64,000 nt of DNA from an uncultured Prolixibacteraceae bacterium (GCA_964429135.1 CAYSAU010000010.1:5642-69641), one strand, 5' to 3'. Shown: positions 8,137-63,655, numbered from the stretch's first letter. The notes: generated from the letters alone by a model not told the origin. Made by a program: numbers and translations.

Positions 8137-9096
8137 ATGAAAATTGGTTTAGATGTCCTGGGAGGTGATTTTGCGCCAAAGGCTACTTTACATGGAGCCA
8201 TCATGGCCAGGAAAGAACTTCCGGAATCCGATACCATTGTCTTGATCGGTGATAAGGAAATAATCTTGACTTTTCTAAAGGAAGAAAGGGTAAGTCCTGA
8301 TAAATTTGAGATTGTGGACGCCCCGGATCTAATCGAAATGGATGAACAGCCCACCAAGGCTTTAATCAATAAACCAAATTCAAGTATCTCTGTGGGATTT
8401 CGTATGCTTAAGCATAAAGAAATCCATGCTTTTACCAGCGCGGGAAGCAGCGGAGCCATGATGGTCGGTTCCATCTACAGTGTAAACACCATCCAGGGCA
8501 TCATACGGCCAAGTTCTCCTGCTTATATTCCTAAAGAAGGAGGAGGATCAACCATTTTGATCGATGTAGGGACTAACCCCGATGCCAAACCTGATGTAAT
8601 GTATCAGTTTGGATTATTAGGATCAATTTTTGCCGAACATGTCTTTCATGTGAAAAATCCCAGAGTGGGGTTATTGAATATTGGCTCTGAAGAGAAAAAA
8701 GGGAGTCTTACTACCCAGTCAGCATTCCAGTTGATGAAGGAGTCCAAGGACTATAATTTTGTTGGCAATGTTGAAGGGAGAGAGCTTTTTCGTGACAATG
8801 TTGATGTTATTGTTTGTGATGGTTTTGTCGGTAATATTGTACTGAAACAGGTGGAAGCCATGTATCGCGTCCTAGTTAAACGCGGGATCAAGGATTCATA
8901 CCTGGATCGTTTTAATTACGAGACTTATGGCGGGACACCTGTCCTCGGAGTCAATGCCACAGTAATCGTTGGTCATGGCATTTCCAATAGTAATGCGATC
9001 CGTAGGATGATTTTACTGGCCAAAGAGGTTCATGAAGCAAAACTTTCTCAACGCATTAAACATGCCCTTGAGCGTTATTCAATCAATCACAGATAA
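8137..9096 (+). CDS. plsX: Phosphate acyltransferase PlsX
   Basis: MKIGLDVLGGDFAP N-terminus and the GNVEGRELF and CDGFVGNI blocks. Conserved rpmF-plsX-fabH order. ATG at 8137 (GTG 8134 in the track). Confidence 0.92.
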   Translation: MKIGLDVLGGDFAPKATLHGAIMARKELPESDTIVLIGDKEIILTFLKEERVSPDKFEIVDAPDLIEMDEQPTKALINKPNSSISVGFRMLKHKEIHAFTSAGSSGAMMVGSIYSVNTIQGIIRPSSPAYIPKEGGGSTILIDVGTNPDAKPDVMYQFGLLGSIFAEHVFHVKNPRVGLLNIGSEEKKGSLTTQSAFQLMKESKDYNFVGNVEGRELFRDNVDVIVCDGFVGNIVLKQVEAMYRVLVKRGIKDSYLDRFNYETYGGTPVLGVNATVIVGHGISNSNAIRRMILLAKEVHEAKLSQRIKHALERYSINHR

Positions 9097-9102
9097 ATTA
9101 TC

Positions 9103-10092
9103 ATGACAACGCTGAGAGCCAAAATTTCCGGTCTTCATGCTTGGGTTCCTCCGTATATCCTTACCAATCAGGAGTTGGAAACCATGGTGGAAACTTCGGA
9201 TGAATGGATCATTAGTCGTACCGGAATCAGGGAACGGCATATTTTAAAAGGCGAAGGCCTTGGAACTTCCGATATGGCTGCCGAAGCCGTGAAGGGTTTG
9301 CTGGAAAAGACAGGAACATCTCCCGATGATATCCAGCTTGTGATCTGCGCTACAGTCACCCCTGACATGATGTTCCCGGCAACTGCGAATATTATCAGCG
9401 ATAAGGTGGGAATTAAAAACGCTTTTAGTTTCGACATCAATGCTGCCTGTTCCGGTCTGCTTTTCGCTTTGATTACTGCTTCAAAATATGTGGAATCAGG
9501 ATTATTCCAGAAAGTGATCGTGGTGGGGGCAGATAAAATGTCTTCCATTACCGATTATACGAATCGGGAGACCTGTGTGCTTTTTGGTGACGGAGCTGGA
9601 GCTTTTCTACTGGAGCCGACTACTGAGGAACTGGGCATCATGGACGCTATGGCCGGAACTGACGGATCGGGAAGAATACATTTGCACATGAAAGCAGGGG
9701 GCTCTGTGAAACCGCCTACCCATGAGACTGTCGAGGCCAAAGAACATTTTATCTACCAGGAGGGGCAACCGGTTTTCAAATTTGCGGTTACACGCATGGC
9801 CGATATTTCTGCAGAGATCATGGAGAGAAATAATTTAACAGCAGACGATATTGCTTTTCTTGTTCCTCACCAGGCCAATCTTCGTATTATTGATGCCACC
9901 GCCCGCCGCATGGGCCTAGAGAAAGAAAAGGTGATGATCAACATCGACAGATACGGGAATACCACAGATGCTACCATTCCATTGTGTTTATGGGAATGGG
10001 AAAGCAAACTAAAAAAAGGAGATAACATCATCCTTGCTGCTTTCGGCGGAGGATTCACTTGGGGTAGTGTGTGGGTGAAGTGGGCGTATTAG
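9103..10092 (+). CDS. fabH: Beta-ketoacyl-ACP synthase III
   Basis: SDEWIISRTGIRERH, the active-site block NAACSGLLFAL, HQANLRII and GGGFTWGS are all present. Confidence 0.93.
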   Translation: MTTLRAKISGLHAWVPPYILTNQELETMVETSDEWIISRTGIRERHILKGEGLGTSDMAAEAVKGLLEKTGTSPDDIQLVICATVTPDMMFPATANIISDKVGIKNAFSFDINAACSGLLFALITASKYVESGLFQKVIVVGADKMSSITDYTNRETCVLFGDGAGAFLLEPTTEELGIMDAMAGTDGSGRIHLHMKAGGSVKPPTHETVEAKEHFIYQEGQPVFKFAVTRMADISAEIMERNNLTADDIAFLVPHQANLRIIDATARRMGLEKEKVMINIDRYGNTTDATIPLCLWEWESKLKKGDNIILAAFGGGFTWGSVWVKWAY

Positions 10093-47380: not shown

Positions 47381-48592
47381 TTAATTCCTCATTCTTAATT
47401 CCTCACTGACATAGTATGCCATTGCCGCATAAAACGCCGAAGCGGCCACCAGGTCGCTGACGGGAACTTTTTCGTTGGGGGCATGAGCCAATACTTCATT
47501 GCCCGGACCAAAACCGATACAGGGAATCTGGTAAAATCCATTAATGGTCACCCCGTTGGTCGAAAAGGTCCACTTATCCGTGAGGGGCTTCTTGCCGAAA
47601 AGGCCTGAAAATACTTCCTGGGCACGGACCACAAGGTAATGATCTTCTTCGATTTTCCAGGTGGGATAGTACTTTTCCATGCCATAGTGAAGGCCGGTAT
47701 AAGCTGTTTCTTCGTAATGAAGAACCTGGATTTCGGCATCCATACCCTGAAGAATTTCACGGATCTCAGCTACAGCGGATTCTTTGGTTTCTCCCCAGGT
47801 CAGGCGGCGGTCAAGATGTATTTTTGCATAATCGGCAACAGCACAAAGAGAAGGACTTCCCGAAATGAATTCTGAAATTGTAACGCTTCCTTTGCCAAGG
47901 AAATCATCCGTTTTCAGCCGTTCGTTCAGTTTTTCGATTTCCAGGCAGGCACGGGAAGCCATGTAAATGGCATTTTTCCCTCGTTCAGGAGCGGAGCCAT
48001 GGGAAGAAATACCGCGGAAGGTCACTTTAATTTCCATTCTTCCCCTGTGTCCCCGGTAGATATTAAGGTTGGTTGGTTCAGTGAGGACCACAAAGTCAGG
48101 TTTGATTTTTTCTTCTTCAATAAGATATTTCCAGCAGAGTCCGTCGCAATCTTCTTCCATCACGGTTCCGGTGAAATATATGGTCAGGTCGCGGTTAAAA
48201 GCCAGATCTTTCAGTATTCTCCCTGCGGTGACAAATGCGGCAGGACCTCCCTTTTGGTCAACGCTTCCCCTTCCATGAACATAAGCATTTTTGATTTCAC
48301 CCGAAAAGGGATCGAAATTCCAGTTGGCGATATTGCCGACATCCACGGTGTCGATATGTCCGTCGAAAACCAGGATCTTACTTCCGTTACCGATACGTCC
48401 GATCACGTTTCCAAGTCTGTCGATGCGTGCTTCATCGAAACCGGCTGCCAGCATCTGCCTTTTAAGTTCTTCGGCCACATCTTTTTCCCGGGTGCTCAAA
48501 GAACGGATTTTAACCAGTTTTGATAAATTGCCGGCGGTGTAATCCGCGTATTTTTCTGCTAATTCGTTGATTTTGTATAATAGATCTTTCAC
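47381..48592 (-). CDS. ygeY: YgeY M20-family hydrolase
   Basis: 403 aa. GHIDTV, GRGSVDQKGG, EEDCDGLCW, YRGHRGRMEI, SHGSAPERG, RLTWGET, DKWTFSTNG and GFGPG..V.AHAPNE match remembered E. coli YgeY. Confidence 0.92.
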   Translation of the reverse strand: MKDLLYKINELAEKYADYTAGNLSKLVKIRSLSTREKDVAEELKRQMLAAGFDEARIDRLGNVIGRIGNGSKILVFDGHIDTVDVGNIANWNFDPFSGEIKNAYVHGRGSVDQKGGPAAFVTAGRILKDLAFNRDLTIYFTGTVMEEDCDGLCWKYLIEEEKIKPDFVVLTEPTNLNIYRGHRGRMEIKVTFRGISSHGSAPERGKNAIYMASRACLEIEKLNERLKTDDFLGKGSVTISEFISGSPSLCAVADYAKIHLDRRLTWGETKESAVAEIREILQGMDAEIQVLHYEETAYTGLHYGMEKYYPTWKIEEDHYLVVRAQEVFSGLFGKKPLTDKWTFSTNGVTINGFYQIPCIGFGPGNEVLAHAPNEKVPVSDLVAASAFYAAMAYYVSEELRMRN

Positions 48593-48715
48593 AAAATAGT
48601 TTTTTATGAATCGGTAAATTTACAAAAGAATCATACTCAGGCTGGTAATTTCATTAAATATCCTGTTCATGAAAAAGAATAATTATCTTTAGCGGTCCAT
48701 TGTATACGCTGCAAT

Positions 48716-50614
48716 TTGAAAAATTTCAATAAAATTCATTGGAGTATCGCTCTTTTAATGGTGATATCCGTCATCTTAATGATTACGGTTATATCTTGCC
48801 GAAGGACTCATTCAAATGACAACAAGCTTAAAACCACAGGATTGTTATCATTAGCCGATTCACTCAGCCATTTCAATCCGGCCAAGGCTGATTCTCTTTA
48901 TCGCTTAATACTTGCGGATAGCAATGTGAATGGGACCAAGGTACAGGTCATGTCATTGGTCGGAAGATCGGAAATATGTTCAGGCCGTTCGCATTATGAT
49001 TCAGCCCTATCATTAATTAATCAAGCCTTAGATATCTCTGCCCTTGCAGGTGACAGTTCATTGATTATGACGGTTCTTCTTACGAAAGGGGGTTTACAGG
49101 TGGAACTGGGTAATAATGAGAAGGCTGGGGAATGTTTTCAGCAAGGCTTGTCTATTGCAAATAGAAAAAGCAGCCTTGAGAATGTGAATGCTTTCAGTCT
49201 TGCGCTTGGATCTATAGAAATGGATAATGGAAATTTTCAAGAAGCCATAAGGATATATACTGAAGCTTTAAAATTTGCTGAAAAAACAGGAAATATCAAG
49301 AATACTGCACTTGCTCTGGAAAATATCGGACTGGCGCTTAATTATACCGGTGATTTAAAAGAAGCTCTTGGGTATATCAGGCAAGCCCTGCAAATACGAA
49401 AAAAGAACAACCTGCTTCGTGAATATGCCATGGGATTACAGAATCTTGGAATTACTTACAGGAAACTTGATATGCTTGATTCTGCCCTCAAATGTTATGA
49501 CCAGTCAAAAGAAATACTCAATCGACTACATGATTCGAATACCCTGGTGAGAGTGATGTACAATACAGGGATTGTACTCAAAAATCAGAAGAAATACAGT
49601 GTTGCAGCACAAGCCATGGAAGAAGTACTGGCAATTTGTCGTAAAAAGGGCATTTTTGATGGTGAAGTTTTTGCATTGCATACACTGGCAGCAATATATG
49701 ACGAAGAAGGTGAAACAGGGAAAGGAATCAAATATTCAGATAGTGCAATAGTACTTGCCAGGCAGCGTAAGCTGATTTCCGATTTGCCTAATTTGCTTGA
49801 AAGGAGGCAGGATCTTCTGGCCAAAACCGGAAATTACAAAGAAGCTTATATCAATGCACTGAGATATATGGAACTATCCGACAGTCTTCTTTCTCTCAGT
49901 AAACAAACAGAAATAGCAAAGATTAAAACCTGCTTTGAAACGGAACGCAAAGAGGCTGAGAATATTCTATTGAAAAAGGATATTGAAATTCAAAAATCAA
50001 GAAACTGGTTACTCGTGATAGGTTCCTTGCTTGGTTTCCTGGTATTTATTGTTTTAGTGACCATGTTGATCATCAGGCAAAAACAGGTCAAACAACAAAA
50101 GCAACTGGCTGAAGAAAGATCAATAAGGCTTGAGCAGGAAAAAATGAAAAAGGAAATTGAGCTGGAAAAAATTCAGATCGAAACTCAATTGAAAGAACAG
50201 GAACTGGTCTTTCAAACGCTTAAACAAGCTGATCTTACTCAGATTAACCGCTCTGTTCAGGAAAAATTATCCTTATTTAAAATGAAGTTTTCCAGAAAAA
50301 GGGATCAGGAAGAATTTGAACAAATGCTGAGTGAATTGACCCGTGAAGCCAACCGGGAACCCATGTCGGAATTTGATTTACTCTTCCGGAAACTGCATGC
50401 TTCATTTTATGAAAAACTGCTTCAGCTTTGCCCTGATTTATCAAGGGCAGAATTACAGGTTTGTGCCCTGGTCCGATTGAATCTGAATTCAAAAGATATC
50501 GCCCGCCTGATCAATATCTCCGTATCCACTGTTGAAACAACCCGCCATCATATTCGAAAAAAACTGTCATTAGAACCTGGTGACAACCTGACATCATTTC
50601 TGATTACCATTTAA
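48716..50614 (+). CDS. Transmembrane one-component regulator: periplasmic TPR sensor + TM + coiled coil + LuxR-type HTH
   Basis: N-terminal anchor, TPR-like repeats over about 400 aa, a TM helix (WLLVIGSLLGFLVFIVLVTMLII), a Lys/Glu/Gln-rich coiled coil, and a C-terminal LuxR HTH (RAELQVCALVRLNLNSKDIARLINISVSTVETTRHHIRKKL). Apparent TTG start. Confidence 0.8.
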   Translation: MKNFNKIHWSIALLMVISVILMITVISCRRTHSNDNKLKTTGLLSLADSLSHFNPAKADSLYRLILADSNVNGTKVQVMSLVGRSEICSGRSHYDSALSLINQALDISALAGDSSLIMTVLLTKGGLQVELGNNEKAGECFQQGLSIANRKSSLENVNAFSLALGSIEMDNGNFQEAIRIYTEALKFAEKTGNIKNTALALENIGLALNYTGDLKEALGYIRQALQIRKKNNLLREYAMGLQNLGITYRKLDMLDSALKCYDQSKEILNRLHDSNTLVRVMYNTGIVLKNQKKYSVAAQAMEEVLAICRKKGIFDGEVFALHTLAAIYDEEGETGKGIKYSDSAIVLARQRKLISDLPNLLERRQDLLAKTGNYKEAYINALRYMELSDSLLSLSKQTEIAKIKTCFETERKEAENILLKKDIEIQKSRNWLLVIGSLLGFLVFIVLVTMLIIRQKQVKQQKQLAEERSIRLEQEKMKKEIELEKIQIETQLKEQELVFQTLKQADLTQINRSVQEKLSLFKMKFSRKRDQEEFEQMLSELTREANREPMSEFDLLFRKLHASFYEKLLQLCPDLSRAELQVCALVRLNLNSKDIARLINISVSTVETTRHHIRKKLSLEPGDNLTSFLITI

Positions 50615-50862
50615 TTTTAGAATATTCTCCTGCAATTTACCTGTTTGGTACTGTTAACAATTTGATTAACTTAATGTTATCGTATTCTTTGTCGCTTTCT
50701 TCCCGGAAGTGAGATGGATGATGGTTCATTTATTCATGTTTAACCATTTAAAAATATGTTAATTATGTAATGGAATCAAGGAAAAACCCAGATTTTTCCG
50801 CAAGAAAAAACTTGACTGAACTCATTCCAGTGACGTACATTTAACGCATCAAAGCCAAATTG

Positions 50863-51276
50863 ATGGTTGTCGGGAAAGCAATTCATGTTCATACGATCCT
50901 TTTAGCATTAAAAAGTAATATTGATTCAGAATCAATTTTACCTTTATTAACAAGAGCTGACCGGAAAATCTTTTTAGCAGATACCTTAAATATTATGATG
51001 AGTACATGGCTGGAGCATCCTGAAATTGAAATGGTTTTCATCAGTATGAATCTGGCATTTGAGCATGGTTTGAATCCCTTGGAAAGAATTAGAAAATTCC
51101 GGCCTGAAATTCCGATTGTGTTGCTTTCAGATTTTGTTTCACTGGAATCAATTCGTCTCGCCACCTTGGCTGATTGTAATGAGATTATGCAAAACCCAAT
51201 CAATGTGGAGGCTTTGAATGCTGTCATTGAAAAATACCTTCCTGATTCCCCAGATAGTCCAAATTCATTTGTTTAA
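50863..51276 (+). CDS. Receiver-like (pseudo-receiver) domain protein
   Basis: REC-like layout (…EMVFISMNLAFEHGLNPLERIRKFRPEIPIVLLSD…IMQNPINVEALNAVIEKYL). Ser replaces the phospho-acceptor Asp, there is no N-terminal acidic pair, and Gln replaces the conserved Lys. Confidence 0.5.
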   Translation: MVVGKAIHVHTILLALKSNIDSESILPLLTRADRKIFLADTLNIMMSTWLEHPEIEMVFISMNLAFEHGLNPLERIRKFRPEIPIVLLSDFVSLESIRLATLADCNEIMQNPINVEALNAVIEKYLPDSPDSPNSFV

Positions 51277-51295
51277 CTTAAAAATTTATTTACTT

Positions 51296-52114
51296 ATGAA
51301 AAATCTGAATGTTGAAACTAAAATTCTGTTGACTTTGTTTTTCTTTTTATTACTATCCATGAATAAGATCAGTGCACAGGAGGAAAAACAAAAAGTGGAC
51401 ATGACAGAACTAGCCAAGAAAACCCAGAATCCTGTTGAATCGATGATACAGTTGCCATTCAGCTACTATGGTAATTTTAATTGGGGACCTACTAAGGCGT
51501 TTTCCTCCACCCTTGAAATGAAACCGGTGGTTCCGGTTAAACTCAGTAAAGGATTAAATCTGATCCTTCGTGCCATTGTTCCGGTAGTTTTTCTTCCCAC
51601 ACCGGTTAGCAAGTCTGGTATATCGGATATTCAGCTTCAATTTTTCCTGGCTCCATCCAAAGCGAAAAAGTTTATCTGGGGTGCTGGTCCCATGGTGACC
51701 TTCCCCACGGGTGTGCCTTATGAGCTTTGTTCAGGTAAATGGACTGCCGGTCCTATCGCGGTGGGTTTATTCATGATGAAACGATGGGTGGTAGGCGTAT
51801 TAGCGAATCAGCGGTGGTCCTTTGCCGGAGATGGTTCTATGCCTGACATTAATCAATTATATATCAATGCATTTGCCAACTATAACTTCAAAAATGGATG
51901 GGCAATTTCCTATGCTCCGGAAATTTATGCCAACTGGAAGGAAGCCTCGGCAGATATATGGACAGTACCGGTAGGGCTGGCAGGCATAAAAGCTTTCCAC
52001 ATTGGAAAGCAGATGATGTCAGCAAACCTTGGTTATTATTATAATGTTGTCCGCCCGACAGGAGCCGCCAATATGTATGTAAAAGCAGGAATAAGCCTGT
52101 TATTTCCAAAATGA
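51296..52114 (+). CDS. Outer-membrane beta-barrel channel ('transporter' / MetA-pathway-of-phenol-degradation-like family, from memory)
   Basis: The ATG at 51296 gives a signal peptide ending ...KISAQ. LAKKTQNPVESMIQLPFSYYGNFNWGP....LEMKPVVPV..S.GLNLILRAIVPV fits the L.NP...l..P.q.n...g......l..qPviP...nli.R..vP pattern I recall for this family. It ends in an aromatic-rich strand. Confidence 0.55.
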   Translation: MKNLNVETKILLTLFFFLLLSMNKISAQEEKQKVDMTELAKKTQNPVESMIQLPFSYYGNFNWGPTKAFSSTLEMKPVVPVKLSKGLNLILRAIVPVVFLPTPVSKSGISDIQLQFFLAPSKAKKFIWGAGPMVTFPTGVPYELCSGKWTAGPIAVGLFMMKRWVVGVLANQRWSFAGDGSMPDINQLYINAFANYNFKNGWAISYAPEIYANWKEASADIWTVPVGLAGIKAFHIGKQMMSANLGYYYNVVRPTGAANMYVKAGISLLFPK

Positions 52115-52134
52115 TCAACCAATATCAGAGAAGT

Positions 52135-53877
52135 ATGAAAAAAACAGTAATGATTGTTATTACCTGCCTGTATCTGTTTTCAGGTTCAAGGCTGTGGTCT
52201 CAAACCATCGATCCTGATTTATATCCCGCCTCAGATAACAAGGAATGGGGTCAACTCTTATGGAACCTGAAGCTGGCCGACCAGGACCTCTCAGATTTCA
52301 CACACTACCGTTCGGTCGACCAGCAAGGAGTCAGCGCTAATCGTTATACCATTGCTTTTGCCTCCTATTTTCTGGCGCTGGAGCAGTACCATAAATTCCC
52401 TGCCTGGAGTGAAGCCATTCAACCGGCATTCGACCGGTTGATCCAGAGAATGTTGCAAAAACCTGTATGGGAGTACTGGGCAAACGAGAGCTTCGGGATC
52501 ACCAAATTTGAACCCAATATGGACCGTCCCTATGCCTCCTCCTCCGATCCGGTGGGATATGCAAACATCATGTATTCCGGACATCTGGGGATGATGATCA
52601 ACCTTTACCAGATGCTGTACCACGACATGAAATGGGACAAACCCGGATCCATTGTGTTCCAGTGGGATGAAAAGACACGGTTCGTGTACGACAACAGACG
52701 CTTGCAGGAGGTGATGTTCATTCAGAACATCACCAATCCGGTGCCGGGTATCGAATGCGAACGAAATGCTGTATTCCCTGCCTGCAACACCCATCCCATG
52801 ATCAGCTACTTGTTGTTTGATCAGATGCACAATACCCGTTTTTTCCAAGCAGCCCGCGCGGTGTATGATCCCTGGTGTGAAAAAATCTTTATCAACCCCG
52901 ACACCAAAGATTTTGCCTCTTTTTACCTCATCAAGCAGGGATGGGCCTTTTCGGGATGGAACCCCCGGTATGGCAATAAAATGGATGCGGTGATGGCAGA
53001 GATGGTGAAAAAAGGAGTTGATTTCAACTCAGGAGGTAACGATGGCTGGATCGGCACCTTTATGCATGCCTGGCGTCCTGAATTGATTGAAAACAATTAC
53101 CCCTATCTGAAAAAGAAACATTACAAAGACTTGCCGGGGGGTAAAGCAATGTTGACGAAAGATGTGATCGCTCCGGATTGTTACTATGGTTTCTTCGCAA
53201 CGCTTGCGGCCGAAGTAGGTGATGAAATGGCCAGAGAAGCGCTGTTGAAAACGGTTGACAGCATCTATTCACCGGTGTGGGAAGAGGGCACTTTTCGATA
53301 TCCCTTTATGGATGATGTTCCCACTGTAAACCTGGCTGCAGCTGATGGAGAGAAAAAAACCGAACCCCCGGCAGCCCAGGTTCAAACGCCGGACATTTCG
53401 AAACAGCCGCTTTCCCAACCAAACAAAGGAAAAGAGCCATCCGGTCTCTGTTGTAAATCAACACAAATCAAAGGTCATGGAGATGCCACGAATATGAAAA
53501 CATTCCCGTCTCATTCTGATTTGGCCGATCGTCTGATAGCCATTGCACGGGCGCTTCCGGCAAAAGGATTATACACCATGGTCAACAACCCGTTTGATTC
53601 TGTACACTTTTCGGAACCCGCCATCACAGGGGTGGACATAACCAGGGTGATCCTGAAGAGGGCCGTTTATGACCGAGGGAACAAGTTGCTCATCGTTTCA
53701 ACGATCGGGAAGAAGGATGGGGGAAATACCTCTTTAAAAATAATCAACCTGAACCCATTTAAAACCTATTCCATAGAGATCGATAAAACGCATTACAAGG
53801 ATGTGGTAAATAAACCGGATCATATCATCATCATAGATCCAGGTAAATCACATGATATCATCGTGAGAGAGAAATAA
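52135..53877 (+). CDS. Exported linalool dehydratase/isomerase (Ldi)-like (alpha/alpha)6-barrel protein with extra C-terminal domain
   Basis: Signal peptide MKKTVMIVITCLYLFSGSRLWSQ. RYTIAFASYFLA, NIMYSGHLGMMINLYQML, GIECERNAVFPACNTHPMISYLLFDQMHNT and INPDTKDFASFYL parallel remembered Castellaniella Ldi blocks ([72 protein letters not shown]). Confidence 0.6.
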   Translation: MKKTVMIVITCLYLFSGSRLWSQTIDPDLYPASDNKEWGQLLWNLKLADQDLSDFTHYRSVDQQGVSANRYTIAFASYFLALEQYHKFPAWSEAIQPAFDRLIQRMLQKPVWEYWANESFGITKFEPNMDRPYASSSDPVGYANIMYSGHLGMMINLYQMLYHDMKWDKPGSIVFQWDEKTRFVYDNRRLQEVMFIQNITNPVPGIECERNAVFPACNTHPMISYLLFDQMHNTRFFQAARAVYDPWCEKIFINPDTKDFASFYLIKQGWAFSGWNPRYGNKMDAVMAEMVKKGVDFNSGGNDGWIGTFMHAWRPELIENNYPYLKKKHYKDLPGGKAMLTKDVIAPDCYYGFFATLAAEVGDEMAREALLKTVDSIYSPVWEEGTFRYPFMDDVPTVNLAAADGEKKTEPPAAQVQTPDISKQPLSQPNKGKEPSGLCCKSTQIKGHGDATNMKTFPSHSDLADRLIAIARALPAKGLYTMVNNPFDSVHFSEPAITGVDITRVILKRAVYDRGNKLLIVSTIGKKDGGNTSLKIINLNPFKTYSIEIDKTHYKDVVNKPDHIIIIDPGKSHDIIVREK

Positions 53878-53899
53878 TTCTAATGACTAAAAAACCATT

Positions 53900-54565
53900 A
53901 TGAAAACAAGAAAAATTTATCTCAGCCTTATAACAGTAGTTGCTGCATTTGTAATCATATCGTGTGGTTCGCCAGTCACATTGACAAGCTGGAAGAACCC
54001 GGCTGACGATTCAAAGATTTCGAAAGTTGTGGTAATGCCCCTGTTCGATAAGCTTGAATACATGAAACCATTTGAACAGTCGATGGATGCCTATTTTATC
54101 ACCCAGGGACTGAAAGCGCTTGGGTCGCTTGATATACTGAATCCAAGTATCAAGTATACAGTTTCTGATATCAAAAAGAAGTGCGACAGTCTGGGCTCCG
54201 ATGCTATTTTGGTATTCGTTTACAAAGGCACTGATAAATCGGAAAGCTACGTTCCTCCTACCACTTATACAACCGGCGGGTTTGGTGGTTCCTGGGGCGG
54301 CGGATACTGGGGCGGTGGTTTTTATGGCGGAGTAGGCTTCGATAGCGGCAGTACTGTAACAACCGGAGGCTATTGGACTACTACTTCCGTGGTAAACCTG
54401 AAAGCAAGTTTATACACAAAATCTTCGGCTGAGGCTATCTGGACCGGTGACATTACGGTAACCGACCCGAACTATGTTGACCAGTCGGCCACAACAATTG
54501 CACAGGACATCTATGCCGACTGGCAGAAAAATGATCTTTTAAAATATCCACCGGTGAAAAAATAG
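53900..54565 (+). CDS. Lipoprotein with Gly/aromatic-rich low-complexity insert
   Basis: Lipobox AAFVIISC. Central tract TTGGFGGSWGGGYWGGGFYGGVGFDSGSTVTTGGYW. The flanks look like a small alpha/beta lipoprotein domain, possibly DUF4136-like (weak). Confidence 0.6.
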   Translation: MKTRKIYLSLITVVAAFVIISCGSPVTLTSWKNPADDSKISKVVVMPLFDKLEYMKPFEQSMDAYFITQGLKALGSLDILNPSIKYTVSDIKKKCDSLGSDAILVFVYKGTDKSESYVPPTTYTTGGFGGSWGGGYWGGGFYGGVGFDSGSTVTTGGYWTTTSVVNLKASLYTKSSAEAIWTGDITVTDPNYVDQSATTIAQDIYADWQKNDLLKYPPVKK

Positions 54566-54625
54566 TGTGGACAAGTTAAATCAAATCAATTCCATTAAAA
54601 CAGGGAATATTAAAAATCACATCAT

Positions 54626-56026
54626 ATGAAAAAAATGACAGTCATTCTTTGGGTATGTTTGATCCCCTTGCTTTTTGCAGGGTGCACCCCGAAACCAGCG
54701 GAAAACAAAGCTGAAACCAATGATCCGAATGTTACAAGAACCCTTGCCGCCGTGGCAATGGAGAGTTATGAGACAGGATTGAATAAATACAAGGTGGCCT
54801 TTTATTACTGGTATGACCACCTCATGGACGGGGAAATCCCACCGGCAAATGTGGCTGAAGCGGGCAAAAAACTTGATCTTGCCCTGGCGGAAATCAACGC
54901 CAACTCTTTTGATAAGGCTTATGTCCTGATGAACCAGGCCGATTCCCTGCTGGATGTGCATGTGAAAAGCGACACTCTTTTCCCCTACGAGACCGACAAA
55001 CCCATGGAAAAACAGGATGCTTCGAAGGTTTATAAAGCCAAAGCAAAGGATTACCTGGTGCTGGAACGTTATGGCGTGAAGATGAACGACGTGGGGCCAT
55101 CTATATGGGGATACTGCGACGATGGGGAATACTACCTGATCACCACGTTCTACAACTATCATGCCCGCGGTCATATCATCAAACCAGTAGTTGTGGAAGT
55201 CATAACCACGAAAGATCCCACAAAACGGTATGTTTACCTGCTGAACGGGGAAACAAAAGTGAAATCAAACGAGAACAGCGTTGAATATTTCGTGGAGGAT
55301 GGGGCTAAAAGTTTCCGTACCATTATCACAGATGACCCGATCGGCGGCGGGACAACCTGTCATTCTATTGGGATTTTCGGGGCCGTAGAGGGAAAGGCTC
55401 CGGCAATCAGCTTTGATGTGACTACAACTCCATCGTTTTCCTACTGGTATAACCAGAATCTGGGAGCGGCCATGATGTATCCCGACATCGTCCTGGCCGG
55501 TTTCGAGCAACCCGGACCTGCCTGGGGCACTGTCACCATGGACGGAAAGACTGCAACCTTCAACAAGACAGCCGGCGGAGTCACGGAAGTTTGCATGATC
55601 AGCGGGGCTCCGGGTAAGAAGTACGATGAATACCGCACCAACATGACCAGGTATGGCAACGAATGGTATATCCCCTTCCATTCTGACCAGTTGGACGGGA
55701 TTTTCATCTGCTACGGAAAATTCCGCGACGGGGCCCTCTGGTACAAGGGCAAGTATATCATTCCCACCGAGTACCAACTGATTCCTGGCATAGCAAACCA
55801 AACCCTGACCCTGAAAGCAAAGACGAAGGAGTATGGCGAACTGGTCCTGAATTTCAGGATCATGTTGCACGACCCGGTATATACCGAGCGCGTGGCAGTG
55901 ATGGATGGCAGTTTCGACGGGCAGATCCTTACCAACGGAGGCGCCTGGTTCGAGCATGTGTTCAAGGGAGCGCCCGACGGGATCAAAGCGGTTCAGGAGT
56001 CACCGCAGATCGTAAATCCCTTGTAG
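54626..56026 (+). CDS. Lipoprotein of unknown family, paralog A
   Basis: Lipobox LLFAGC. An N-terminal helical region is followed by a beta-rich region. It shares blocks with the next gene (YGNEWYIPFHSDQ, GKYIIP, NGGAWFEH). Confidence 0.65.
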   Translation: MKKMTVILWVCLIPLLFAGCTPKPAENKAETNDPNVTRTLAAVAMESYETGLNKYKVAFYYWYDHLMDGEIPPANVAEAGKKLDLALAEINANSFDKAYVLMNQADSLLDVHVKSDTLFPYETDKPMEKQDASKVYKAKAKDYLVLERYGVKMNDVGPSIWGYCDDGEYYLITTFYNYHARGHIIKPVVVEVITTKDPTKRYVYLLNGETKVKSNENSVEYFVEDGAKSFRTIITDDPIGGGTTCHSIGIFGAVEGKAPAISFDVTTTPSFSYWYNQNLGAAMMYPDIVLAGFEQPGPAWGTVTMDGKTATFNKTAGGVTEVCMISGAPGKKYDEYRTNMTRYGNEWYIPFHSDQLDGIFICYGKFRDGALWYKGKYIIPTEYQLIPGIANQTLTLKAKTKEYGELVLNFRIMLHDPVYTERVAVMDGSFDGQILTNGGAWFEHVFKGAPDGIKAVQESPQIVNPL

Positions 56027-56089
56027 AAAACGAATCAACCACATGCTTGAATAAAAAATCCTATTATTGTTTCACTTAATCCAAACACC

Positions 56090-57391
56090 ATGAAAAGTAA
56101 ATTTTACCTGCTGTTTTTCTTCACCGGAATGGGACTGCTGATCAACGGCGGCTGTTCAACCCAGCCAAAGCTTACCAAAGAAGAAGCCACCCAGAAGCTG
56201 GCTGACCTTAAAATGAAATATGATATTGCAAACACCCAGTGGTATGATATTTATAACCAGGGACTGATTCCCGGGGCTGAAGAAGCCGGCAAGTTTATTG
56301 TGCAGGCGCAAAATGCCCTGGATTCAGGAGAGATGAAAAAGGCAGAAGCCCTGATTGTTCAGGCCGATACGTTACTGAAGACCTATACCATGGCCAACCT
56401 GCCCGATTACGATCCGCCGACTCCGCTGGCCAATCCTGCCGATCACGGCAAAGTGCACAAGGCCACCTTACAGGATCTAAGGTCCATGGAGTTTTATGGT
56501 GTTCCGAGATGGAATTACTGGTTCAATTTTGTTGGGAAAGCCGACGACGAAACCCTGTACATGGCATATGCCTACATCAACCATCATGGTACTGGAAAGA
56601 TCACCCCACCCATTGTTTTTGCCATGAGTACGAGCAAAGACCCTTCCAATATTCTGAAGGTGAAATTCACCGGTGAGCCTACGCTGAAAGACACGAAAGA
56701 TGCGCGTATCTGGATTGTCAGGGAGGATGATAAAACATTAACATACACTTTAAAAGATGGCAAAGTGGGGATTAAATTCGAGTCAAAAGAGCTTACCGTG
56801 GATGTGGCCTCCGTCATGCAGTATTCGTTCTGGTACAACAAGAATGTAAATTATGCCGAGATGATGCCGGGAGCCCCCATGGCGGGGTTTGAAGAGACCG
56901 GTGCCGCGGAGGGTTACTTTCTGATAAACGGTGAGAAAATCCCTGTAAAAGGCTTTGGAGAATCCGAGAACCTGTTTTGCGGTGGCAAAGGAGTTGACTA
57001 TCGCAGTGCGCTGATCAAATATGGAAACGAATGGTGGGTGCCATTCCACTCCGATCAGGCTCAGGGGCTAATCTGCATGACTGGAAAATATAAGGATGCA
57101 GGCCTATACCTCAACGGGAAATATGTGGTCCCTTCATCGGTTGAAGTGGTGCCGATTGAAGCGAACAAATCTTTCAAACTGAACCTGAAGACTTCGGAAG
57201 GAGATCTTGACCTGATTATCACTTGCTGGGGATGGGATCCTCCGCTGTATGAACATTGGGCCACCTGTGAAGGGACTTTCAACGGACAAAACCTTACCAA
57301 CGGCTATGCATGGCTGGAGCACATCCCGCAGGGAGGAGTGAACAATAGTCCTCCGGTTGGAGGAAGAAAAGGATTACCAGAGAAAAAGTAA
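56090..57391 (+). CDS. Lipoprotein of unknown family, paralog B
   Basis: Lipobox LINGGC. It shares blocks with paralog A (YGNEWWVPFHSDQ, GKYVVP, NGYAWLEH, and the N-terminal WYD...IP...EAGK helix). Confidence 0.65.
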   Translation: MKSKFYLLFFFTGMGLLINGGCSTQPKLTKEEATQKLADLKMKYDIANTQWYDIYNQGLIPGAEEAGKFIVQAQNALDSGEMKKAEALIVQADTLLKTYTMANLPDYDPPTPLANPADHGKVHKATLQDLRSMEFYGVPRWNYWFNFVGKADDETLYMAYAYINHHGTGKITPPIVFAMSTSKDPSNILKVKFTGEPTLKDTKDARIWIVREDDKTLTYTLKDGKVGIKFESKELTVDVASVMQYSFWYNKNVNYAEMMPGAPMAGFEETGAAEGYFLINGEKIPVKGFGESENLFCGGKGVDYRSALIKYGNEWWVPFHSDQAQGLICMTGKYKDAGLYLNGKYVVPSSVEVVPIEANKSFKLNLKTSEGDLDLIITCWGWDPPLYEHWATCEGTFNGQNLTNGYAWLEHIPQGGVNNSPPVGGRKGLPEKK

Positions 57392-57392
57392 T

Positions 57393-59621
57393 TCAGGATT
57401 TTTTTATTTTCTCCGACGAAAGCAGGATCACCTCGCTGGTGGCAGGTAAAGCAAAATCAGGTTCGTTCTGATGCCCGTCGATGGCTGAAATGGCATCTTT
57501 AATGGCTAACCATACGGAGAGTCCGAGCATAAAAGGCGGCTCTCCGATGGCTTTGCTTTTCAGAATGGTACCAGGGTTTGGAACATGTTTCAATATTTCT
57601 ACCCTGAAATCTTTGGGAATGTCGTTAATGGTTGGGATCTTATAGGTATCGGGAGAATGGGTCAGTAAATTCCCTGTTTTATCCCATTTGATTTCTTCGG
57701 TGGTGCACCATCCTACACCCTGAACAAAACCACCCTGTATCTGTCCCAGGTCGATCGCTTCGTTGATGGAATCCCCCGCGTCCTGAACAATATCGGTACG
57801 CAGCAGACTGTACTGCCCGGTCAGGGTATCAATCATAACTTCTGATACTGCCATCCCGTAAGAGAAATAGAAGAATGGTTTTCCCTGTCCGCTTTCACGA
57901 TCGAAAAAAATACCCGGGGTCCTATAGTAACCTGTAGCGCTCAGGCTTATCTGGCTGAGATGAGCCAGTTTGCATAATTCATCAAAAGGGGTTGTGAGGG
58001 GGAGATTTTCTTTTTCAGATAGTTCTTTCAGCCTTGCTTTGATTTTTTCTATGGCATTTTTTACCGCCATGCCATTGATATCACTACCGGAAGATGCTGC
58101 AGTGGGAGAGGTGTTCGGCACCTTGGAGGTATTGGTGGCATTCACTTTGATTCGATCAGCAGAAATACCTAGTTCAATGGCTGCAATCTGTTGCATTTTA
58201 GTGTGTAGACCTTGCCCCATTTCCGTACCTCCATGATTGACGAGAACGCTTCCGTCTGTGTAAATATTTACCAGGGCTCCGGCTTGGTTAAGGAAGGATG
58301 AGGTAAAGGATATCCCGAATTTTACCGGCATCATAGCTAGGCCTTTTTTGCAGAATTCGTGTTTAGCGTTGAACTTTTCTATTCCTGCCCTGCGTTCAGA
58401 ATATCCGGATGATTTCATCAGCTTCTCATACATTAGGAACAATCGGTTGTTCTCTATTTCCTGGCCATAAGGAGTCAGGTTATTGTGCTCAGACTGGTAA
58501 AAATTCAGCAAACGGAGGTCTGTAGCATCTTTTCTCAGGAACCTGGCCATGCGGTCGATGGCATTTTCAATCACAGCCATACCCTGGGGGCCGCCGAATC
58601 CGCGAAAAGCAGTGTTTGATGGGAGATTGGTCCTCCAGGCTTGCCCTGTGATGCTGACGGAAGGGATGAAATAGGCATTATCGGCATGAAGCATTGCTCT
58701 TTCAAGGATGGCCCGGGAAAGATCCGTAGATGATCCGGCATCAGAATTTAATTCAACTTTGTAAGCCAGGATCAATCCCTTTTCATTAAAACCGATTTCA
58801 TAACGCGATAAAAACCGATGTCTTTTCCCGGTCATAATCTGATCATTATCACGGGAAAGGTGAATTTTTACCGGTCTTTGGGTGGCATTGGCCAGAAGAG
58901 AAGCCCAGGCAGCCACATGGTTTCCCTGGGTTTCTTTTCCCCCGAAGCCCCCTCCCAGGCGTTTTACTTCCACTTCCACTTCGTTTTTTGCGATACCCAG
59001 TACTTCTGCTACGATGGCCTGTGTTTCGGATGGATTCTGGCTGGAAGCAAACACCTTCATTTCCCTGCCTTCCCCGGGCATAGCCAGGGCGGTCTGGGTT
59101 TCCAGGTACCAGTGCTCTTGTGCTCCGGTTTTTAATTCTCCTCGGATCACATGAGGACAATTTTCCATGGCGGTTTCAGCGTTGCCTCTTTCAATTTTAC
59201 GGACCGGGGCGATCAGATTATTTTTAATAATGGCTGATTCAAGGTCTAAGATGGCCTCCAGGGGTTCATAGTCAATGAGGATAAGCTTTTCAGCTTTCAT
59301 CGCGGCTTCTTCATTTTCAGCGGCGATCAGGGCAATAGCCTGACCAATAAAAGTGGTTTCTGATTTTGCCAGACAGGGTTCGTCATGTATGATTGGTCCC
59401 ATCTGGTTTTCACCGGGGATGTCAGAAGCGGTAAGCACAGCATGAACACCTTGAACTTTCCGCGCTTCTGAAACATCAATCCGGAGAATTCCTGCATGGG
59501 CATGAGGACTGAATACGACTTTCCCCAGTAGCAATTGTTCATTCACCAGCATGTCGTCAATATAAACCGATTCGCCGGTTACATGCCGGATGGCGCTGTC
59601 ATGACGGAGTGGTATCGACAT
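57393..59621 (-). CDS. xdhB: Xanthine dehydrogenase molybdopterin-binding subunit
   Basis: 742 aa. HVTGESVYIDD, RLGGGFGGKETQ, FRGFGGPQG, GGTEMGQGLHTK and the KAIGEPPFMLG C-terminal blocks are typical of the XDH large subunit. The start overlaps the xdhA stop by 23 nt. Confidence 0.9.
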   Translation of the reverse strand: MSIPLRHDSAIRHVTGESVYIDDMLVNEQLLLGKVVFSPHAHAGILRIDVSEARKVQGVHAVLTASDIPGENQMGPIIHDEPCLAKSETTFIGQAIALIAAENEEAAMKAEKLILIDYEPLEAILDLESAIIKNNLIAPVRKIERGNAETAMENCPHVIRGELKTGAQEHWYLETQTALAMPGEGREMKVFASSQNPSETQAIVAEVLGIAKNEVEVEVKRLGGGFGGKETQGNHVAAWASLLANATQRPVKIHLSRDNDQIMTGKRHRFLSRYEIGFNEKGLILAYKVELNSDAGSSTDLSRAILERAMLHADNAYFIPSVSITGQAWRTNLPSNTAFRGFGGPQGMAVIENAIDRMARFLRKDATDLRLLNFYQSEHNNLTPYGQEIENNRLFLMYEKLMKSSGYSERRAGIEKFNAKHEFCKKGLAMMPVKFGISFTSSFLNQAGALVNIYTDGSVLVNHGGTEMGQGLHTKMQQIAAIELGISADRIKVNATNTSKVPNTSPTAASSGSDINGMAVKNAIEKIKARLKELSEKENLPLTTPFDELCKLAHLSQISLSATGYYRTPGIFFDRESGQGKPFFYFSYGMAVSEVMIDTLTGQYSLLRTDIVQDAGDSINEAIDLGQIQGGFVQGVGWCTTEEIKWDKTGNLLTHSPDTYKIPTINDIPKDFRVEILKHVPNPGTILKSKAIGEPPFMLGLSVWLAIKDAISAIDGHQNEPDFALPATSEVILLSSEKIKKS

Positions 59622-61915: not shown

Positions 61916-63655
61916 ATGTTCCTGATGCAGCATATTCCCTTTCCCCCGCTTCGGGCTATCTGGCTGAAAGCCGCCGTAGTGGGAAGTTTATGGGCATCAG
62001 TGGAGATCATCCTGGGCAGTTTTCTTCACAATCTGCGTATCCCATTCTCAGGTGCGATTTTATCTTTTTTCGGAGTTTACCTGATCATTTCATTTTTTCA
62101 AATCTGGAAAGAACGCGGGCTGATATGGAGAGCCGGTCTGATCTGTGCATTGATGAAATCCATTTCTCCCAGTGCCATCATCCTGGGGCCCATGTTCGGG
62201 ATCATGACGGAAGCTTTCCTCTTGGAGCTTTTTATTTTATTGTTTGGAAAAAATTTACTGGGATATATTGCCGGTGGAGCTTTTGCAGTGTTATCCACCC
62301 TGATGCAAAAAGTAATCAATCTATTGATTCTTTACGGATTGGACCTGGTACAGATTTTCAAAGGAATGTATGTTTTTTTTATCCGCCAGCTCAGGCTTTC
62401 CGATCCTCATCCGGTTTGCTTGCTTATTTTCATTGCTGCACTGTATTTATTGGCCGGGGTGATTGCAGCTGTTTTGGGTTACCGTTCAGGCAAACGTTAT
62501 CTCAGCCAACAGAAAACAGGAGAAACAACAAAAACAGTTTCCTTTCAAGCCGTAAGTTTGGTTAGATCAACCGGGAAACCAGGCACTTATTCCATCTATA
62601 GCCTTGTTTTCGCTATGTTTTCTATGAGCCTCTGTCTTCTTCTTCTCAATAACGATTGGATCATTCCTGCTCTGATAGTTGCCTCTTTTTTCCTGGGATT
62701 TAGCTTTTTTCGCTACGGAAGATCTTTAAAACGTCTGATGAAACTGGCTTTATGGCTGCAGTTTTTTCTGATTACTTTCCTGGCTTCGTTTTTATGGAAT
62801 AGTATCGCCGGAAATGCATTTTTCAGCATGGATGGTTTGATGGTGGGTCTGAAAATGATATTCAGAGCCATCCTTTTTATTACGGGCTTTTCTGTTATTA
62901 GTATTGAATTGAGAAATCCTTTGATCAAATCCATATTGTATAAAAAAGGATTTTCAAGTTTATATCAGTCCTTATCTCTTTCTTTTTCTGCATTACCGGG
63001 AATAATCTCATCCATGCCGGAATCAAAGGTCTTGCTGAAAAATCCTTTTCGGGCTTTTTCTGTTCTCTTACAGCAAGCGGAAGGTTTGCTGCAGCAGTTT
63101 GAAACAGACCATCGTATGAGGCCTTCTGTCATCATTATAACTGGTGACATTCAGCAGGGGAAGACGAGTTTTGTCAAGGTCATTATTCAGCACCTTCAGC
63201 AAAAGAAATACCGGATTTCGGGATTTTTAGCTTTGGCAGTGATGGAAGGTGAATATCGGTCTGGATTTGACCTGTATAATATTCAAACCTCAGAGATGAC
63301 AGGGTTGTGTACTTTAAAGCCGACTCATGGCTGGATAAAACAAGGTTCTTTTTATTTCAATCCGCTTGGATTACAAAAGGGAAATGAAATTTTGTCCGGT
63401 ATTATTTCCGATCATGCTCATTTAGTCGTGGTTGATGAAGTTGGTCCTTTAGAATTATCGAATCAGGGCTGGGCGAAAGCAATGGGTGATTTATGCCAGA
63501 CAACTCAGATTCCTCAACTTTGGGTGGTTAGGAAAAGCTTGGTGGATAAAGTCGCCAGAAACTGGAATGTCGGAGATGTATTTATTTTTGATATCGTGAA
63601 CGATACCAGTGAAGCGGTGATCAACAAACTGGAAGATCTTTTTCAATCAGTCTAA
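61916..63655 (+). CDS. Fusion protein: polytopic membrane domain (about aa 1-395) + C-terminal P-loop NTPase (THEP1/DUF2478-like)
   Basis: About 8-9 hydrophobic helices, then Walker A GDIQQGKT (nt 63143-63166) and Walker B LVVVDEVGPLE. Divergent from xdhC and convergent with the mocA-like gene, overlapping it. Confidence 0.7.
   Translation: MFLMQHIPFPPLRAIWLKAAVVGSLWASVEIILGSFLHNLRIPFSGAILSFFGVYLIISFFQIWKERGLIWRAGLICALMKSISPSAIILGPMFGIMTEAFLLELFILLFGKNLLGYIAGGAFAVLSTLMQKVINLLILYGLDLVQIFKGMYVFFIRQLRLSDPHPVCLLIFIAALYLLAGVIAAVLGYRSGKRYLSQQKTGETTKTVSFQAVSLVRSTGKPGTYSIYSLVFAMFSMSLCLLLLNNDWIIPALIVASFFLGFSFFRYGRSLKRLMKLALWLQFFLITFLASFLWNSIAGNAFFSMDGLMVGLKMIFRAILFITGFSVISIELRNPLIKSILYKKGFSSLYQSLSLSFSALPGIISSMPESKVLLKNPFRAFSVLLQQAEGLLQQFETDHRMRPSVIIITGDIQQGKTSFVKVIIQHLQQKKYRISGFLALAVMEGEYRSGFDLYNIQTSEMTGLCTLKPTHGWIKQGSFYFNPLGLQKGNEILSGIISDHAHLVVVDEVGPLELSNQGWAKAMGDLCQTTQIPQLWVVRKSLVDKVARNWNVGDVFIFDIVNDTSEAVINKLEDLFQSV

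Follow-up and report, generated by a model that had tools for sequence, protein, structure and literature searches.

To our knowledge, what is known of anaerobic attack on the unactivated C=C bonds of isoprenoids comes essentially from a single enzyme, LDI, of one denitrifier, the betaproteobacterium Castellaniella defragrans (structures 5hlr and 5g1u). LDI is periplasmic and cofactor-free, requires C170 and C179 in their reduced state and has to be expressed in the periplasm of E. coli, and a 2019 account lists only one notable sequence relative (PMC6600392). Isoprene double bonds are converted to tertiary alcohols, again without cofactors, by the AttH-like hydratases CrtC, KHS (kievitone hydratase) and Hgs (bioRxiv 10.1101/2025.10.20.683597; PMC12402844; PMC5805349), among which CrtC has a cavity with a proton-donating Asp (D268) and cation-pi Trp residues (W110, W283 and W285) (PMC12402844). 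Here we analyze a 64,000-nucleotide stretch of DNA from an uncultured Prolixibacteraceae bacterium (GCA_964429135.1, CAYSAU010000010.1:5642-69641; hereafter the window), in which a seven-gene module at positions 48716-57391 encodes an exported Ldi-like enzyme together with two lipoproteins of a new family, LPa and LPb, and is wedged between genes of purine and Mo-hydroxylase metabolism.

We find that this module entered a Prolixibacteraceae-like Bacteroidota genome by insertion between xdhB and ygeY, and that its seven genes are co-inherited independently of purine genes. We regard it as reasonably probable that they form a self-contained, horizontally exchanged envelope operon unrelated to purines, whose core, the exported Ldi enzyme and the two AttH-fold lipoproteins, would hydrate or isomerize isoprenoid alkenes. 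The module would work like the LDI-initiated anaerobic activation of terpenes, while differing from it in enzyme architecture, lipoprotein partnership, regulation and host range.

The seven genes and their products

The module comprises seven open reading frames (ORFs), all on the + strand, and agrees in this with the initial annotation. Each of the seven has homologues elsewhere, so that chance ORFs can be dismissed and the genes are real.

48716-50614, + strand: regulator with TPR_12 and GerE matches and hydrophobic segments
50863-51276 (alternative start 50860), + strand: pseudo-receiver, with a Response_reg match below cut-off and an alignment to CheY
51296-52114 (alternative start 51218), + strand: exported 272-aa protein with a signal peptide, from a family without a Pfam model
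52135-53877 (alternative start 52111), + strand: long-form Ldi-like enzyme (PF18566; AlphaFold2 model and Foldseek)
53900-54565, + strand: Gly/aromatic-rich lipoprotein GlyLP, lipobox IISC
54626-56026, + strand: lipoprotein LPa, lipobox FAGC, paralogue of LPb
56090-57391, + strand: probable lipoprotein LPb (AlphaFold2 model; Foldseek match 7a0t)

The product of 52135-53877 is a member of the Ldi family with the catalytic residues retained. It matches PF18566 with an E-value of 6.9e-68 (229.9 bits against a curated cut-off of 26.1), a profile of 24 Ldi-like sequences matches the LDI chains (5hlr) with an E-value of 1.4e-23, and the NIMYxGH and C-x8-C motifs place M146, H150, C208 and C217 of the window protein opposite M124, H128, C170 and C179 of LDI, all four being invariant in alignments of both 24 and 49 sequences. 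Met124 and His128 are, like Cys170 and Cys179, catalytic residues of LDI. In the AlphaFold2 model (pLDDT 86.7) an (alpha,alpha)6 barrel at residues ~25-400 is followed by a disordered linker (404-456) containing Cys-Cys and by a conserved C-terminal domain (462-580), helical plus beta-sandwich, that is not present in LDI; the top 27 Foldseek matches of this model are all LDI (best E-value 9e-15, TM-score (target) 0.80). The N-terminal signal sequence MKKTVMIVITCLYLFSGSRLWS, recognized by inspection, indicates periplasmic export and bears out the initial description of an exported Ldi-like protein. The two enzymes thus share PF18566, the (alpha,alpha)6 fold, a Sec signal and the Met/His plus Cys-x8-Cys residues, but they are only ~18-22% identical, and the module enzyme has ~190 extra residues in its linker and C-terminal beta-sandwich domain. 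The LDI pentamer also has a Cys48-Cys101 capping disulfide and Asp38'/Tyr44 from a neighboring protomer; the N-terminal ~60 residues of LDI lie outside the HMM alignment. The module enzyme is further set apart by being encoded beside AttH-fold lipoproteins, in other taxa also beside radical enzymes, and by hosts that are metagenome-assembled genomes (MAGs) of strict anaerobes rather than a denitrifying betaproteobacterium. By analogy with LDI, whose hydratase-isomerase activity is on myrcene, linalool and geraniol, it would act as a hydratase or isomerase on isoprenoid alkenes or allylic alcohols.

LPa and LPb are paralogues, as first noted (31% identity, E-value 2e-61). The AlphaFold2 model of LPb (pLDDT 90.5) combines an N-terminal helical bundle with a large beta domain, and the latter has, as modeled, the double beta-barrel fold of the AttH/kievitone-hydratase type: its best Foldseek match is kievitone hydratase 7a0t (E-value 2e-10, prob 1.0, TM-scores 0.41/0.52 over ~350 columns), followed by fungal Diels-Alderases (7e5t and 7e5u, E-values 1e-8 to 1e-7). 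Homology to LPb suggests a similar fold for LPa. LPb shares its beta-domain fold with kievitone hydratase, CrtC and Hgs and is extracytoplasmic like KHS, but differs from them in its lack of sequence similarity, TM-scores of 0.41-0.53, an extra N-terminal helical bundle and a lipoprotein anchor. The same double beta-barrel is found in Fsa2 and Phm7, fungal decalin-forming Diels-Alderases, which are eukaryotic secondary-metabolite enzymes without sequence similarity to LPb, and the fold accordingly does not fix the reaction. A sequence-level link of the LP proteins to CrtC/AttH was rejected: no CrtC/AttH-type Pfam model matches LPa or LPb at E<=0.1 or ten remote relatives at E<=0.01, the LP-family profile has no sequence match among the PDB chains, and a profile search run exhaustively over 1.84 billion representatives gives no support either.

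Homologues of LPb form a small family, with 75 clusters among 5.8 billion proteins and 63 representatives in the 1.84-billion set, all annotated "hypothetical" and without a Pfam domain. Among 48 LP sequences, with identity down to 32%, 30 positions are invariant; Asp, Glu, Trp and Tyr account for many of these, and 10 are charged. D53, D153, E268, E293, E314, D336, E388 and E410 as well as W51, W248 and W315 of LPb belong to the invariant set. This pattern suggests catalysis, short of proof, and the acidic and aromatic residues are consistent with carbocation chemistry. Loci carry one to four LP paralogues, LPb being the partner that most often adjoins Ldi, and LPa orthologues in other Bacteroidota loci are 84-90% identical to that of the window. 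Two loci (L009 and L010) contain at 8848-9784 short ORFs of 74 and 154-169 aa, one of them 88% identical to the LPa C terminus, which are probably an LPa pseudogene or an assembly frameshift.

The remaining four products would serve regulation, transport or handling. The regulator matches TPR_12 (7.5e-31) and GerE (4.7e-5; 23.4 bits against a cut-off of 23.5) and has hydrophobic segments at residues 10-28 (signal or anchor, with a possible lipobox VISC) and 435-453 (transmembrane helix), giving the order N-terminal anchor, predicted periplasmic TPR region, transmembrane helix, coiled region and C-terminal LuxR/GerE helix-turn-helix. It thereby resembles the Bacteroidota TPR regulators of the BT3442 family and FimS type in its periplasmic TPR region, transmembrane helix and cytoplasmic output, but that output is a LuxR helix-turn-helix rather than a kinase, its partner is a pseudo-receiver, and its score against the NCBIfam model BT3442_fam (93 bits) lies far under the cut-off of 940. 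The partner has a CheY-like fold (Response_reg, 25.9 bits, under the cut-off of 30.2) without the phospho-acceptor Asp, the acidic pocket or Lys109: S occupies the position of CheY D57, K/S those of D12/D13 and Q that of K109, as is also the case in nine of ten orthologues. Its gene always lies between those of the regulator and the 272-aa protein or, in L009, before BcrAD. Both the transmembrane TPR-LuxR regulator and the receiver lacking its Asp had been called correctly from the start.

The 272-aa protein had been described as an outer-membrane beta-barrel channel, of which the export is borne out and the barrel is putative. It has a signal peptide, 13% aromatic residues and a C-terminal LLFPK, and belongs to a family of at least 4586 homologues without a Pfam model, one member of which is labeled "neuromedin U" in an NCBI record; we found no Pfam, NCBIfam or PDB match for it (two PDB profile searches). 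Matches to PF13557 (Phenol_MetA_deg) occur in two of 16 homologues, one from Negativicutes (L002) that is 31% identical to the window protein and scores below the curated cut-off, and one in L008 that is only 17% identical. Assignment to this channel family was discarded, since hhalign against the PF13557 protein of L008 gave a probability below 1% in two runs. We retain an outer-membrane channel as its putative role. GlyLP has no Pfam or NCBIfam match and is specific to Bacteroidota, with a mean column identity of 88% in a 12-sequence alignment.

By inspection, the 272-aa protein, Ldi, GlyLP, LPa and LPb each have a signal peptide or a Cys-containing lipobox-like N terminus, which supports the view, already taken in the initial annotation, that these products act in the cell envelope. 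The intergenic gaps from the pseudo-receiver gene onward are 19, 20, 22, 60 and 63 nt, in agreement with the 19-63 nt first reported, and the regulator-to-pseudo-receiver gap is 248 nt. A terminator scan found no + strand terminator-like sites in the gaps downstream of 50863; the gaps and this result are compatible with one transcript starting at 50863, which would make these six genes an operon. A sigma-70 and terminator scan combined with a search for the Bacteroidota -7 motif was uninformative, and an Rfam scan of 48300-57700 found no riboswitch or RNA family.

Insertion of the module between xdhB and ygeY

On its left the module is flanked by a ygeY-like M20 peptidase gene (47381-48592, - strand) and then a ygeW-like carbamoyltransferase gene (- strand), and on its right by xdhB (57393-59621), xdhA and xdhC, all on the - strand. 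The initial annotation had preferred a purine uptake or preprocessing system and offered an unrelated inserted operon as the alternative, and it is the alternative that the comparison with relatives upholds. Mapping the window genes onto 41 loci fetched around xdhB homologues showed the module genes to be absent from all 41. In the two closest relatives, a Prolixibacteraceae MAG (L046) and a complete Bacteroidales MAG chromosome (L047) with XdhB identities of 91-92%, the gene order is xdhC-xdhA-xdhB-[127 nt]-ygeY-ygeW, and blastn of both against the window shows homology stopping at 57417 and restarting at 48626. The feature thus delimited is:

48627-57416 (8,790 bp), no strand assigned: inserted segment, replacing 106 bp of the xdhB-ygeY spacer and the last few xdhB codons

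The xdhB-ygeY adjacency is ancestral, because xdhB also lies directly beside ygeY (28-368 nt) in nine loci of more distant Bacteroidales, only 61-72% identical (L054, L059, L063, L068, L072, L079, L082, L085 and L086). The insertion has rewritten the C-terminal tail of XdhB, which ends in LLSSEKIKKS in the window, in EKLKAGSISILP in L046 and in LLSVEKLKAGSISILP in the closest relatives (difference region 57393-57417 in the window and 12190-12250 in L046), and the stop codons of LPb (57391) and xdhB (57393) are now 1 nt apart. The GC contrast is not marked (0.437 in the insert against 0.455-0.469 in the flanks), and a recent donor is not among the sampled loci, blastn of the insert against all of them giving at most 79-85% nucleotide identity.

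The xdhB-ygeY junction appears to have received unrelated cargo repeatedly: in L083 (12760-18437) it holds genes for a 1463-aa AcrB-OEP fusion (RND pump) and a membrane-fusion protein, and in L050 (12416-16733) an ABC-2/ABC_transp_aux/DUF4340 transporter set. Several further loci have xdhB-ygeY gaps of 1-6.5 kb. In L083 (8405-12310) and L050 (8444-12337) xdhA and xdhB form a single ORF of ~1300 aa, a possible gene fusion.

Distribution and the wider cluster family

We assembled 38 independent LP-family loci from contigs encoding homologues and from a genome scan, mapped them by tblastn and examined +/-10 kb around each, a purine gene being any homologue that is more than 40% identical to ygeW, ygeY, xdhA/B/C or the amidohydrolases of the window. 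The loci come from about ten phyla and exclusively from MAGs (the hosts of the cluster family include Bacteroidota, Ignavibacteria, Verrucomicrobiota, Geobacter, Desulfobacteraceae, Syntrophorhabdaceae, Acidobacteria, Elusimicrobia and Negativicutes), and the close relatives of the module are all MAGs from anoxic lakes and groundwater. None of the 38 has a purine gene within this range, and the purine hypothesis is thus unsupported because homologous modules sit in loci without purine genes. The 75 Ldi-centered loci (L088-L162) likewise have no ygeW, ygeY or xdh genes nearby, a single 23%-identity amidohydrolase match in L148 being spurious, and linkage to purine genes is therefore rejected by synteny around LP-, Ldi- and xdhB-centered loci alike. 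Five MAGs hold both the module and the purine system (bin-511, ELA698, bin-778, bin-7146 and ELA395), on separate contigs.

What does travel together is the module itself. An Ldi gene is present in 34 of the 38 loci and directly adjoins an LP gene in 25, and ten Bacteroidota loci have the full layout of the window, namely regulator, pseudo-receiver, 272-aa protein, Ldi, GlyLP and LPs, with regulator orthologues 45-59% identical and upstream of the module; since the ten share this layout, the regulator is part of the module and not of the purine genes. The Ldi and LPb types reassort between loci, as in L015, which pairs an Ldi of 46% identity with an LPb of 88%. Between loci in which the Ldi and LPb proteins have only 46-60% identity (L009, L014, L022, L023, L032, L034 and L038), GlyLP retains ~90%, and similarly high values hold for LPa (84-90%) and for the 272-aa protein (80-84%).

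A reciprocal scan with an Ldi profile recovers the same loci and, in addition, Ldi genes without LP in Victivallales, Myxococcota and Desulfomonilia. Distant Ldi homologues (27-34% identity) come mostly from MAGs and from a few cultured aerobes. The Ldi homologue of P0223, on an 8.6-Mb Victivallales chromosome, is solitary, with an uninformative context. Paired Ldi genes and no LP genes are found in L122-L124, L153 and L157 (Desulfomonilia, Deltaproteobacteria, Sphingomonas and Phenylobacterium), and one Desulfomonilia MAG has at least four Ldi copies.

Half of the LP-family loci (19 of 38) also contain HGD-D/BcrAD genes, comprising one or two HGD-D pairs and an activator of the BcrAD/BadFG type; the closest solved relatives of the HGD-D pair are BzdN (2.5e-46), a HadB-like 2-hydroxyacyl-CoA dehydratase (1.8e-34) and BzdO (4e-8). 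These loci, found among L003-L010, L017-L018 and L026-L043, add a CdhC-like protein of 250-290 aa, weakly related to the A-cluster domain of acetyl-CoA synthase, as well as a CooC/CbiA-like ATPase and an SfLAP membrane protein. The HGD-D pairs are thus related to the BzdNO and 2-hydroxyacyl-CoA dehydratase systems with their BcrAD activator, but are joined to CdhC-like and CooC-like genes and occur in loci other than the window: tblastn detected no BcrAD, HGD-D, CdhC-like, CooC-like or SfLAP gene in its 64 kb, and about nine other Bacteroidota loci are also without the cytoplasmic radical-enzyme genes. Some MAGs (bin-778 and bin-7146) carry one full and one envelope-only locus.

Literature searches combining Ldi with HGD-D, benzoyl-CoA reductase, Bacteroidetes or metagenomes found no description of this cluster family; a paper on a benzene-activation cluster concerns an unrelated system. 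A conserved family of clusters from anoxic-water MAGs couples a relative of LDI with a new family of hydratase-fold lipoproteins, offering candidates for the turnover of terpenoid carbon under anoxia and for cofactor-free alkene hydration, where tertiary alcohols would be of biocatalytic value. It also holds a lesson for annotation, as the location within a "purine supercluster" is an accident of insertion.

Proposed function and competing explanations

Judged by analogy, the most likely function of the module is the oxygen-independent periplasmic hydration or isomerization of isoprenoid-type alkenes, as Ldi and AttH-fold enzymes are of the kinds that, needing neither cofactors nor oxygen, hydrate isoprenoid or prenyl groups at unactivated C=C bonds or isomerize allylic alcohols. 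We propose that a hydrophobic unsaturated compound (a terpene, carotenoid-like or prenylated molecule) would enter through the putative 272-aa channel and be hydrated or isomerized in the periplasm by the Ldi and LP proteins to tertiary or allylic alcohols, with GlyLP as a structural or handling partner, while the TPR-transmembrane-LuxR regulator would detect the compound on the periplasmic side and act jointly with the pseudo-receiver to turn on the operon from 50863. In loci elsewhere the products would probably pass to the benzoyl-CoA-reductase- or 2-hydroxyacyl-CoA-dehydratase-like radical enzymes encoded in the cytoplasmic part of the same cluster. The window lacks this radical-enzyme half, and the module would therefore feed another genomic locus or serve detoxification or modification only. 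The function that was initially left blank is in this way narrowed by the Ldi catalytic residues and the kievitone-hydratase/AttH fold, the substrate class being what we infer from them.

A broader and more tentative reading, which we consider possible though doubtful, holds the window to be the envelope half of a widespread anaerobic pathway that would activate isoprenoid hydrocarbons or lipids without oxygen, e.g. residues of carotenoids, squalene, phytadienes or monoterpenes that sink into anoxic waters. After periplasmic hydration by two unrelated types of cofactor-free hydratase, the long-form Ldi and the AttH-fold LP proteins, full clusters would bring in a BzdNO/Hgd-like radical enzyme driven by ATP and a metalloprotein resembling CdhC/CooC, with Ldi and LP variants swapped like cassettes to cover different substrates.

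Several observations weigh against an alkene-hydrating envelope operon. Many Ldi homologues of 37-48% identity come without LP genes, and the genes neighboring the module across loci offer no coherent hint of a substrate. The likeness of the LP proteins to hydratases is at the level of fold only (TM-scores 0.41-0.53, no sequence or Pfam signal), this fold is common to Diels-Alderases, and an LP could be a binding protein. The beta-barrel nature of the 272-aa protein is unsupported by Pfam, hhalign and PDB profile searches; no junction repeats of >=9 nt and no mobility genes account for the insertion; and divergent transcription from ygeY over a 123-nt spacer could entail accidental co-regulation.

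Among the other explanations, one would have LPa, LPb and GlyLP act as noncatalytic, lipocalin-like carriers from an outer-membrane channel to Ldi, then the sole enzyme, or to the inner membrane. The double beta-barrel does resemble lipocalins, with hydratase likeness confined to the fold, and lipid anchoring and the one to four LP paralogues per locus recall binding-protein families; the best structural matches are nevertheless all enzymes, and 30 invariant positions, 10 of them charged, at identities down to 32% are more typical of enzymes, so that we find this explanation unlikely. Detoxification, in which the envelope-only version would hydrate toxic terpenoids or prenylated phenolics from plants or algae with no downstream pathway, has a precedent in kievitone hydratase, a secreted fungal detoxifying enzyme (PMC5805349), and suits the window and the ~9 Bacteroidota loci devoid of cytoplasmic radical-enzyme genes. 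It is, however, distinctly improbable given that the same proteins are tied to a large cytoplasmic enzyme set in half of the loci, and that the coexistence of full and envelope-only loci in bin-778 and in bin-7146 suggests a satellite role. That the module modifies isoprenoid lipids or pigments in the envelope of its own host cell, as in the biosynthetic hydrations of the AttH-like CrtC and Hgs (PMC12402844; bioRxiv 10.1101/2025.10.20.683597), might be read from a Caroten_synth gene upstream of the module in one locus (L008). The window has no carotenoid genes beside the module, and the sensor-regulator, the putative channel, the patchy spread across phyla and the absence from close relatives favor an accessory catabolic or defense trait, making biosynthesis very unlikely.

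That the module imports or preprocesses a purine-type substrate of low solubility for the yge/xdh pathway on either side was suggested by the location between xdhB and ygeY, an arrangement shared by at least three metagenome contigs from this species. We give this explanation hardly any credence: the homologous loci (0 of 38) have no purine genes, the junction is free of the module in the closest relatives, MAGs with both systems keep them on different contigs, the module has a regulator of its own and is encoded on the other strand, and Ldi/AttH-fold chemistry targets alkenes, not heterocycles. Least credible is a glycan-active system with the (alpha/alpha)6 barrel as a glycoside hydrolase, toward which weak Foldseek matches of the Ldi-like model to GH127 and GH76 (E ~1e-4) point, since the LDI matches are ten orders of magnitude better, the LDI-specific catalytic residues are invariant and no SusC/SusD or CAZyme genes neighbor the module.

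Beyond the right flank of the module, at 61916-63655 and divergent from xdhC, the window also encodes a 579-aa protein in which the N-terminal 400 residues are without assignment and the C-terminal part matches NTPase_1.

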